This document shows, piece after piece, positions 21,229-42,113 of a DNA stretch of 64,000 nt. The stretch is taken from the IMG/VR virus record IMGVR_UViG_3300044970_001685, one strand, 5' to 3'. This DNA is from a virus. The notes under the pieces are model-generated. The model worked only from the letters and a program-made list of their open reading frames with translations. It searched no databases and was not told where the DNA came from. The position numbers and the translations under genes are program-made. Position 1 is the first letter of the stretch. The number at the start of each line of letters is the position of its first letter.

Positions 21229-21257
21229 TGCTGGGAAAAAATCCCGGCAATTTTTTT
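21229..21257 (+). terminator. Intrinsic terminator
   Basis: TGCTGGGA-AAAAA-TCCCGGCA followed by ATTTTTTT. Confidence 0.75.
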
Positions 21258-21279: not shown

Positions 21280-21295
21280 TGTATCGCATTATACA
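21280..21295. promoter_or_regulatory. NtcA-binding site
   Basis: TGTA-TCGCATTA-TACA matches TGTA-N8-TACA, just upstream of a sigma70 promoter. Confidence 0.7.
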
Positions 21296-21303
21296 GTGTA
21301 AAC

Positions 21304-21332
21304 TTGCTATATACTTTCAATAGGTCTATAAT
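21304..21332 (+). promoter_or_regulatory. sigma70-type promoter
   Basis: TTGCTA-17 nt-TATAAT; predicted TSS ~21339, at the first aptamer base. Confidence 0.8.
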
Positions 21333-21339
21333 GACCTTA

Positions 21340-21390
21340 CGTTCATTCGCTATTTGCGAATAGCGAACGGAAGTAAGCCGACTCGGAACG
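21340..21390 (+). ncRNA. Glutamine riboswitch-like aptamer 1 (glnA/Downstream-peptide class)
   Basis: P1 CGTTC/GAACG; P2 TTCGCTATT-TGCG-AATAGCGAA; joining region CGGAAGTAAGCCGACTCG. Confidence 0.75.
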
Positions 21391-21394
21391 AAGC

Positions 21395-21566
21395 CGTTCA
21401 TCTATGGAAGCATTTTTTTTAACTTGCCTTCAAGCTAATTTTATCATTGGAAGAGTAACTACTCATCCAAGATTAGATGCCCAGCAAAAAAATGATATTG
21501 TTTGGGAAGTAAAGCAAGTTACAAAAAAAGGTTGTTTCATAGACGCAAAAGCCGACTGAAGGAACG
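21395..21566 (+). ncRNA. Glutamine riboswitch-like aptamer 2 with a ~120-nt P2 loop insertion
   Basis: CGTTCA...CGCAAAAGCCGACTGAAGGAACG; P2 TCTATGGAAGCA (21401-12) pairs with TGTTTCATAGA (21533-43). Confidence 0.7.
21404..21559 (+). CDS. 51-aa ORF nested inside aptamer 2
   Basis: MEAFFLTCLQANFIIGRVTTHPRLDAQQKNDIVWEVKQVTKKGCFIDAKAD*. Confidence 0.6.
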   Translation: MEAFFLTCLQANFIIGRVTTHPRLDAQQKNDIVWEVKQVTKKGCFIDAKAD

Positions 21567-21599
21567 CTCTTTAATTTAAAAACCTAAGGAGAAAACCTA

Positions 21600-21737
21600 A
21601 TGTCTAAAGTAGTATATCGCGGCGTTGAATACGATACGCAAAAGCGTTTGGAGTATCAACAGCAGATGATGCAGCAACCCCAACAATACAACGAAACCTA
21701 TCGTGGTGTTAAGTTTGTAAAGGAGGGGCATAAGTGA
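21600..21737 (+). CDS. DUF4278-like peptide, Gln-rich
   Basis: AAGGAG RBS; MSKVVYRGVEYDTQKRLEYQQQMMQQPQQYNETYRGVKFVKEGHK with two YRGV motifs. Confidence 0.8.
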   Translation: MSKVVYRGVEYDTQKRLEYQQQMMQQPQQYNETYRGVKFVKEGHK

Positions 21738-21838
21738 TGAATACTTATTTTGTGCGTTATCTTAAAACAAAAGCAAAGAAGGAAAAACTTCTAAAAGCGG
21801 CTCAAATTAATATGGCAATGCAACCACAAGTTGCTTGA
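21737..21838 (+). CDS. 33-aa basic peptide
   Basis: TGATG coupling to the upstream gene; MNTYFVRYLKTKAKKEKLLKAAQINMAMQPQVA. Confidence 0.6.
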   Translation: MNTYFVRYLKTKAKKEKLLKAAQINMAMQPQVA

Positions 21839-21841
21839 AGT

Positions 21842-21879
21842 AAAGGAGGGTTGATCCCCTCCTTTTTTTATGTTAAAAT
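21842..21879 (+). terminator. Terminator whose loop is the -35 of the next promoter
   Basis: AAAGGAGGG-TTGATC-CCCTCCTTT plus T-tract; TTGATC-17 nt-TAAAAT with a TG extension. Confidence 0.8.
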
Positions 21880-41792: not shown

Positions 41793-41864
41793 GGGAGCAT
41801 AGCTTAATGGTCAGAGCGGCCTGCTTATAACGGGTTAGTCTGGGTTCAACTCCCAGTGTTCCCA
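41793..41864 (+). tRNA. tRNA-Ile(TAT)
   Basis: Acceptor GGGAGCA/TGTTCCC; anticodon arm GCCTG-CTTATAA-CGGGT; TTCAACT T-loop. Confidence 0.9.
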
Positions 41865-41866
41865 TT

Positions 41867-41939
41867 GCTCGTTTAGCAATCTGGTGAATGCACCGATCTC
41901 ATAAATCGGCATAGGTGGGATCGTTCCCCACAACGAGCA
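41867..41939 (+). tRNA. tRNA-Met/Ile2(CAT)
   Basis: GCTCGTT/AACGAGC; CCGAT-CTCATAA-ATCGG; atypical T-loop ATCGTTC. Confidence 0.8.
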
Positions 41940-41941
41940 CT

Positions 41942-42021
41942 TGCCGTGGTTCATAACTTATGATAGAATCCAGTGGGGCATCTATCAAACGGTTTTGATT
42001 TAGTCTCACAAACACACGGCA
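41942..42021 (+). ncRNA. Candidate structured ncRNA in the tRNA cluster
   Basis: Closing stem TGCCGTG/CACGGCA, three internal hairpins and a potential pseudoknot. Confidence 0.5.
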
Positions 42022-42029
42022 TCAAACAA

Positions 42030-42113
42030 GCGAGTATGGTGGAATCGGTAGACACACCAGACTTAAAATCTGTTGGGGGCAACCTCGTGGGAGTTCAAGT
42101 CTCCCTACTCGCA
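42030..42113 (+). tRNA. tRNA-Leu(TAA)
   Basis: GCGAGTA/TACTCGC; CTTAAAA loop; long variable arm; TTCAAGT. Confidence 0.92.

Follow-up and report, generated by a model that had tools for sequence, protein, structure and literature searches.

A T4-like cyanophage stretch of 64,000 nucleotides (IMG/VR record IMGVR_UViG_3300044970_001685, hereafter the window) carries two neighboring segments that resemble glnA-type glutamine aptamers, and an open reading frame (ORF) starts inside a stem of the second one. This raises the question of how an RNA with the features of a metabolite sensor can hold a gene, i.e. which strands pair with which, whether the ORF is coding, and what the arrangement controls. 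An earlier note on this DNA had described two aptamers in succession, the second having the same frame as the first but a greatly expanded P2 loop. The analysis given here points to a different topology: the RNA is very probably a nested double aptamer, in which an outer aptamer of the glnA type (21340-21567) surrounds a circularly permuted inner core (Table 1). The explanation that best accounts for the locus as a whole, and that is considered probable, is a nested glutamine sensor leading a nitrogen-status operon, with a gene in the inner P2.

The ORFs near the locus, recognized by eye, are presumably thyX-, phoH- and gp32-like, and the closest cultured relatives of the window phage are the Synechococcus phages DSL-LC03, S-SRM01 and DSL-LC02. 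The layout is common to hundreds of cyanophages, including P-HM1, P-HM2, P-SSM2, P-SSM4, P-SSM7 and Syn1, and occurs in short forms of about 100 nt in S-PM2 and S-CREM1. At gathering score, Rfam returns only tRNAs in the window (three tRNA genes at 41793-42113) and no match at the riboswitch locus. The glutamine-I model RF01739, which has no room for an insert, scores 30.8 bits on unit 1 only and thus does not reach its gathering score of 35; in cultured phages, single units score 33-35 bits.

Table 1. Predicted features of the nested element and its operon (positions in the window)
Feature	Position	Strand	Description
Intrinsic-terminator-like hairpin	21229-21249	+	From consensus scan only; separates the unit from the upstream gene
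NtcA-type box	21281-21294		GTA-N8-TAC; centered roughly 52 nt upstream of the aptamer start
Sigma-70-type promoter	21304-21332	+	-35 at 21304-21309, 17-nt spacer, -10 at 21327-21332; 10/12 matches
Outer P1, 5' strand	21340-21344	+	Pairs with 21562-21566; cross-unit assignment
Outer P2 hairpin	21346-21367	+	9 bp, 4-nt loop
Outer junction	21368-21375	+	G22 (21369), linchpin G23 (21370), AGUA E-loop strand (21372-21375)
Shared P3 helix, 5' strand	21376-21383	+	Pairs with 21550-21557 at 6 of 8 positions
Inner P1 hairpin	21385-21400	+	21386-21390 (unit 1 3' strand), linker 21391-21394, 21395-21399 (unit 2 5' strand)
Inner P2	21401-21543	+	9-bp stem 21401-21409/21535-21543, contains AUG, 125-nt coding loop
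Nested ORF	21404-21559	+	51 aa, PHROG 504 family, predicted helix hairpin, two invariant Cys
Inner junction	21544-21549	+	G22' (21545), linchpin C23' (21546), no E-loop
P3 3' strand and outer 3' end	21550-21567	+	P3 21550-21557, GAA 21558-21560, P1 21562-21566, C60 21567
Expression platform	21567-21591	+	7-bp hairpin; first base C60, 3' arm is the DUF4278 Shine-Dalgarno sequence (21585-21591)
DUF4278 (IF17-like) peptide gene	21600-21737	+	45 aa; PF14105 E 0.0017 (weak, below curated cut-off), phrog_5049 E 1e-10
33-aa ORF	21737-21838	+	TGATG overlap with DUF4278 gene; counterpart annotated in S-SRM01
Intrinsic-terminator-like hairpin	21842-21865	+	Ends the unit

In known glnA aptamers, ligand binding joins nucleotides 23 and 60 in a pair (PMC5393176, PMC6212724), and the numbering of the outer aptamer is taken from these studies. 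Fold statistics were collected over 210 distinct phage loci. In all of these, a Watson-Crick pair links position 23 of the first unit to position 60 of the second (122 C-G, 88 G-C), whereas the same linchpin drawn within either unit is Watson-Crick in only 119. The cross-unit linchpin is the top APC-corrected MI column pair, is Watson-Crick in a further 112/112 and 122/122 loci (partly overlapping sets), and changes about nine times on the DUF4278 tree and seven times on the nested-ORF tree, always concordantly. On supported branches, sign tests gave p 0.06 and p 0.125 for the linchpin, which are underpowered, and p 0.03 for the end pair of P3 (T-A 165, G-C 35, T-G 7, A-T 3). The P3 8-mers of the two units pair at six positions with compensatory changes, for example in S-SRM01 and S-CREM1, and the lengths of the two strands covary across units (8/8, 6/6 or 5/5); in the 5-nt forms (Syn1 and about 90 loci), one strand is mostly the exact reverse complement of the other. 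Furthermore, six loci carry a compensatory C-G to G-C change between the 3' strand of unit 1 and the 5' strand of unit 2, with the outer P1 unaltered. The loci are interrelated, many were fetched by fixed RNA motifs and the trees were built on short sequences, so that these counts do not represent independent events. Nevertheless, linchpin, P3 and P1 all covary across units, which argues for the nested fold, and in the models the nested core exceeds the tandem core in stability by 5.6 kcal/mol.

The P1-P2-P3 three-way junction of the outer aptamer is likewise obtained across units. Only across units does its E-loop form, in which the AGUA strand, fixed by the search pattern in homologues, lies opposite a GAA that overlaps the stop codon of the nested ORF and is replaced by AAA in 29 of the 210 loci. 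The E-loop and the G23-C60 linchpin span about 200 nt, and the whole aptamer 228 nt. The predicted outer aptamer fits the structural definition of glutamine-I (glnA). The ligand-contacting bases C1, G2, G22, C58 and G59 are found in both cores of the window, while the search patterns fixed them in homologues. The usual 'doublet' reading, with two independent tandem glnA aptamers of which the second has an expanded P2 loop, draws on the glnA order of each unit, on the Rfam alignments of single units at 30-35 bits and on the glutamine doublets reported elsewhere (157 in PMC9481103). However, linchpins within the units of the window would be G·A and C·C, and neither unit has more than half an E-loop: unit 2 is without the AGUA strand and unit 1 without its GAA partner, contrary to the shared frame that had been assumed for them. 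A within-unit P3 would have 2 bp and be broken in 39/210 loci, a hairpin is impossible for the 5-nt P3 forms, and the P1 swap in the six loci mentioned above would leave mismatches in both units. Contradicted in this way by the covariation of linchpin, P3 and P1 across units, an independent tandem fold is exceedingly improbable.

Within the nested fold, the inner core takes the place of the outer L3: the chain enters at P3, passes through P1' and through P2' with the gene, and returns to P3 by the inner junction. The inner position 60 (21391) is A in the window and G in 204 of the 210 loci, and the inner linchpin is C-G in 204 and G-C in 2 loci, with C·A in the window and two others (3/210). 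Pocket bases and a long-range C-G pair without an E-loop are found in 206/210 homologues, the window with its C·A linchpin departing from them. The order of the pocket bases, the long-range C-G pair of most homologues and the missing E-loop resemble glutamine-II (Downstream-peptide RNA, RF01704; PMC6698751), but the topology is not that of the glutamine-II pseudoknot: of the two pocket strands, the 3' one comes first in the chain and closes a hairpin with the 5' one. With its C·A linchpin, the inner core may bind only weakly in the window phage.

The ORF itself can be read directly in the sequence as had been described, starting at the ATG at 21404 (TCT-ATG-GAA) in the 5' strand of P2 and running for 51 codons to the TGA at 21557-21559 in the 3' glnA-type segment. 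The loop that it crosses was given as about 120 nt and measures 125 nt (21410-21534), compared to 4 nt in the P2 of unit 1; the ORF extends beyond this loop, and its final codons double as the P2 3' strand, as the junction and as a P3 strand. The inner P2 stem covaries with MI values of 0.58-0.85 and is 100% paired, and the A of the AUG is paired in 147/157 loci. Burial of the start codon by folding, and the incompatibility of translation with the fold that had been deduced from it, are both in agreement with this covarying stem. The cross-unit pairing of linchpin, P3 and P1 places the ORF inside both aptamers, so that its translation would break the outer one as well.

A loop of this kind would be stop-free by chance in 2% of shuffled loops. 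Of 157 loci with a long loop (96-208 nt), 150 read in frame from an AUG located 4-7 nt into the 5' strand of P2 to exactly the conserved stop; the same is true of 115/121 loci retrieved by RNA pattern alone. Computed without the RNA-core codons, dN/dS amounts to 0.21, 0.12, 0.45 and 0.21 in four length classes, against 0.8-2.8 in the other two frames, each of which is interrupted by stops in all sequences. The nested ORF is under coding selection and is almost certainly translated. It has no clear Shine-Dalgarno sequence. The peptide matches the phrog_504 profile (E 3e-6), has relatives at 64 viral loci with 45-100% identity and 260 homologues in databases, and contains exactly two Cys in all 146 distinct versions. 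AlphaFold predicts a confident helix hairpin (pLDDT 85). Searches with the peptide gave no match in Pfam, only generic helix hairpins among PDB structures (E of at least 0.6), only cyanophage hypotheticals among viral matches, and only unnamed clusters (below 0.9) in the ESM Atlas. Attenuation through Gln codons of the ORF was considered as well and is unsupported, Gln making up 5% of its residues.

Compared to synonymous recodings, real P2 domains fold more stably, with a mean z of -2.4, negative values in 45/46 and a window z of -1.45. RNAalifold finds no consensus pairing within the coding loop, and the extra folding there is thus not one conserved structure. In S-SRM01 (L065, 12973-13140), a compensatory T-to-G change in P3 abolishes the stop and lengthens the peptide by five residues, which shows that RNA pairing outranked the stop position in this phage. 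The nested ORF is unannotated in the record of P-SSM2 (L418, AY939844 near 245215-245370), and so is its homologue in DSL-LC03.

The sensor does not need the ORF, since 53 of the 210 loci are without it and have a 12-33-nt hairpin in its place. Moreover, 40/205 homologues carry an ORF of 62-69 aa in the outer P2 loop, again with the AUG in the stem, and 27 have both ORFs; in P-HM1 the two loop ORFs are PHM1_179 and PHM1_180. The 214 loci fetched by protein include 192 that parse as the full element and not one with a free-standing gene for the nested peptide; the remaining 22 are contig edges (7), variant elements (13) and partial deletions (2). The most fitting view of the ORF is that of a regulated cargo, carried by a sensor that apparently also exists without it. 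At least two further peptide families of 62-69 aa with a hydrophobic N-terminus and two Cys occupy the outer P2 (L003, L050, L075, L085, L415); one of these corresponds to phrog_6471, and one ends at a TAA within the E-loop strand. A third position for genes is the linker between the inner P1 strands, where a gene of about 200 aa leaves the core pairs intact (L217:1623-2204; L237:5821-6438; L592, L602). Its N-terminus has a GIY-YIG-like motif, and the L217 copy matches the homing endonuclease phrog_314 (E 1.6e-6).

The surroundings of the element form a compact transcription unit. An NtcA-type box occurs within 120 nt in 137/194 homologues, compared to a mean of 6.8 in shuffles and 4-17 in controls with N6, N7, N9 or N10 spacing, and it is mostly centered near -52. 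A TANNNT peak at -13/-14 in homologues agrees with the candidate promoter of the window, and the transcription start is inferred to lie near 21339, at the 5' end of the aptamer. A YRG-type gene lies downstream in 195/210 loci. With its NtcA box, its promoter and terminator-like hairpins on both sides, the locus is best explained as the leader of a self-contained nitrogen-status operon. NtcA sites in cyanophages (PMC3037559) and glnA riboswitch matches in phages (PMC9964418, PMC9004378) were already known. RNA-seq of P-HM2 showed that PHM2_179-181 are transcribed in infection and in the dark change together from the middle cluster to the late one; the neighbors 178 and 182 are unmoved, and 93% of genes keep their class (PMC5082946). 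These three genes are the homologous unit of P-HM2, and the transcribed PHM2_180 is the homologue of the nested ORF. The joint shift fits a separate transcript that responds to the state of the host, and says nothing on translation.

Several minor observations concern this region. A 5-bp inverted repeat flanks the -10 element of the window (21322-21337) and has counterparts with arms of 4-6 bp and differing sequence in 20/194 homologues; it could be an operator or a hairpin. In a minority class (L010, L023, L025), the NtcA box lies near -32 and an A/T-rich motif resembling T4 late promoters takes the place of the sigma-70 promoter; the action of NtcA may therefore be a different one in this class. 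In the DUF4278 peptide, two YRG motifs flank a Gln-rich middle part, and Gln makes up 8.5% of residues across its homologues. The 33-aa ORF has no family match in Pfam or PHROG.

Downstream of the aptamer, an RBS-blocking helix precedes the DUF4278/IF17-like gene (its Pfam match being weak). The same design, with position 60 starting a helix over the RBS, was proposed for gifB (PMC6212724). When the bound state is modelled simply, by holding position 60 and the upstream strand, the Shine-Dalgarno sequence (SD) opens in 75 of 85 C60 loci and closes in 69 of 120 G60 loci, which suggests that the switch comes in an ON and an OFF version, according to linchpin polarity. That the RNA binds glutamine is likely, and both cores are inferred to do so. 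Binding would stabilize P1 and P2 over the AUG and thereby repress the nested gene, and would draw C21567 out of the anti-SD hairpin, raising the DUF4278 gene. A ribosome on the nested ORF would unwind P2' and P3, end on the E-loop adjoining the outer P1, and in this way compete with the bound fold. At low glutamine the nested gene would be translated with the DUF4278 gene off, and at high glutamine the reverse would hold. In the window model, SD pairing falls no further than from 1.0 to 0.68 when C60 is kept unpaired, and the free MFE structure already buries the nested AUG (0.96 paired). Because these effects are modest, reciprocal control of the two genes has about an even chance against a passenger or coupling role of the ORF. 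A more general reading is offered tentatively: the two-site riboswitch would be a modular socket, in which glutamine, possibly bound cooperatively by way of the common P3 helix, silences the genes in the P2 loops and switches the IF17-like gene according to linchpin polarity. If this holds, cyanophages would, together with NtcA, read the nitrogen status of their host during infection.

The same nested fold would also allow the ORF to be a passenger that sits in a tolerant loop and only dampens or delays the switch, with the DUF4278 gene alone under glutamine control; the ORF would then be translated on the nascent RNA, ahead of the synthesis of the distant P2 3' strand. This agrees with the quarter of homologues that lack the inner ORF, its presence or absence changing about 31 times on a noisy tree, with the ORFs in the outer P2 and the homing-endonuclease-like gene in the linker, and with Mycobacterium tuberculosis (Mtb) metE, where removal of the uORF start codon changed the expression level and left B12 sensing unchanged (PMC11260477). 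A mere passenger accords less well with the constant location of the AUG, 4-8 nt into P2 in either loop, and a stop at a fixed core position, with a peptide that is never free-standing among the 214 protein-fetched loci, and with synonymous sites that favor closure of the stem, which together make it a possible but rather unlikely role. A positive coupling is considered clearly less probable still: ribosomes stopping at 21557-21559 would melt the anti-SD hairpin and raise the DUF4278 gene, both genes being up when the RNA is unbound. The stop codon does precede the hairpin by 8 nt and the next AUG by 41 nt, the Mtb ppe2 switch is a known case of coupling that depends on a uORF, and the modelled SD closure in G60 lineages (69/120) would fit joint repression there. 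In the C60 lineage of the window, however, the hairpin is at or beyond the usual leading edge of the ribosome and stays paired in the model (0.97), and ORF-less loci keep the same platform.

In another reading, the glutamine-aptamer fold would bind a different ligand, or serve mainly as a structure for mRNA stabilization or processing. In favor of this are an inner core unlike either known class, the C·A linchpin of the window and a host-type context of IF17 and glutamine synthetase that rests on the weak DUF4278 match. Against this, C1, G2, G22, C58 and G59 are retained in both cores of the window (in homologues they were fixed by the search patterns), and the NtcA box and the DUF4278 gene point to nitrogen status, leaving a different ligand or function very unlikely.

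Several known systems are close to the element. With glutamine-I (RF01739) and the Synechocystis gifB/IF17 leader (PMC6212724), the element has in common the P1-P2-P3 junction, the E-loop, G22, the 23-60 linchpin, the RBS-covering helix that starts at position 60 and the downstream DUF4278 gene, but its outer aptamer is 228 nt long, has L3 exchanged for a permuted core with a gene, and was found in phages. Glutamine-II exchanges strands between molecules in crystals and is functional as a two-piece RNA (PMC6698751), whereas the strand exchange in the phage element would be intramolecular and evolutionarily fixed, giving a permuted junction instead of an H-type pseudoknot. In Yfr6, also glutamine-II, the ORF is downstream and not inside P2. 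Tandem glutamine doublets likewise have two aptamer-like units per leader (PMC2864571; PMC9481103), but are described as successive, pseudo-cooperative units; the review PMC9481103 contains no nested, permuted or helix-sharing glutamine doublet, and some of the doublets counted there may be the nested element. In uMetE2, within the B12 aptamer of M. tuberculosis metE, a translated ORF inside an aptamer also affects the downstream gene (PMC11260477). That ORF comprises about 16 codons, is conserved to a limited extent and lies within one aptamer, unlike the phage ORFs of 50-70 codons for presumably folded proteins, which are under purifying selection in hundreds of genomes, start in a stem and stop in the core.

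Group I introns carry ORFs in their peripheral loops. Like them, the phage element tolerates whole genes in the loops of a structured RNA, including endonuclease-like ORFs, but it has a ligand-sensor fold without a splicing motif, as far as Rfam scans reveal introns.

The element is a new architectural variant of the glutamine riboswitch, with doublets and one short in-aptamer uORF known before. The earlier note knew of no description of such an architecture; this stands for the conserved nested form, and has to be modified for ORFs inside aptamers in general by the published short ORF in the B12 aptamer (PMC11260477). No nested or permuted glutamine aptamer and no phage riboswitch of a DUF4278 gene came up in literature searches, although the alignments and supplements of Ames and Breaker 2011 and Ren 2015 might mention the form. 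The tandem-riboswitch reviews searched describe no nested, helix-sharing or naturally permuted aptamer pair, a pattern that the element breaks. It also breaks the assumption of riboswitch searches that aptamers are non-coding, and sits under the Rfam cut-off in well-studied cyanophages. It provides a direct test of the sensing of host nitrogen by phages and possibly of the modulation of glutamine synthetase, and the 'hypothetical' genes of T4-GC 429, 430 and 541 gain a regulatory context. The short form of about 100 nt is suited to work on structure and cooperativity.

With regard to distribution outside phages, a protein search of genome contigs gave no relative of the nested peptide. A 14-base pattern scan of the same kind of contigs was too loose and returned mostly chance matches, with both units at only two loci, one of them amid T4-like genes. 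A scan of the taxonomic order of the host found no host-chromosome form in the 401 genomes searched, which does not imply that such a form is absent. Its five matches comprise two chance matches and three full elements amid phage-like genes, of which at least one is clearly phage.
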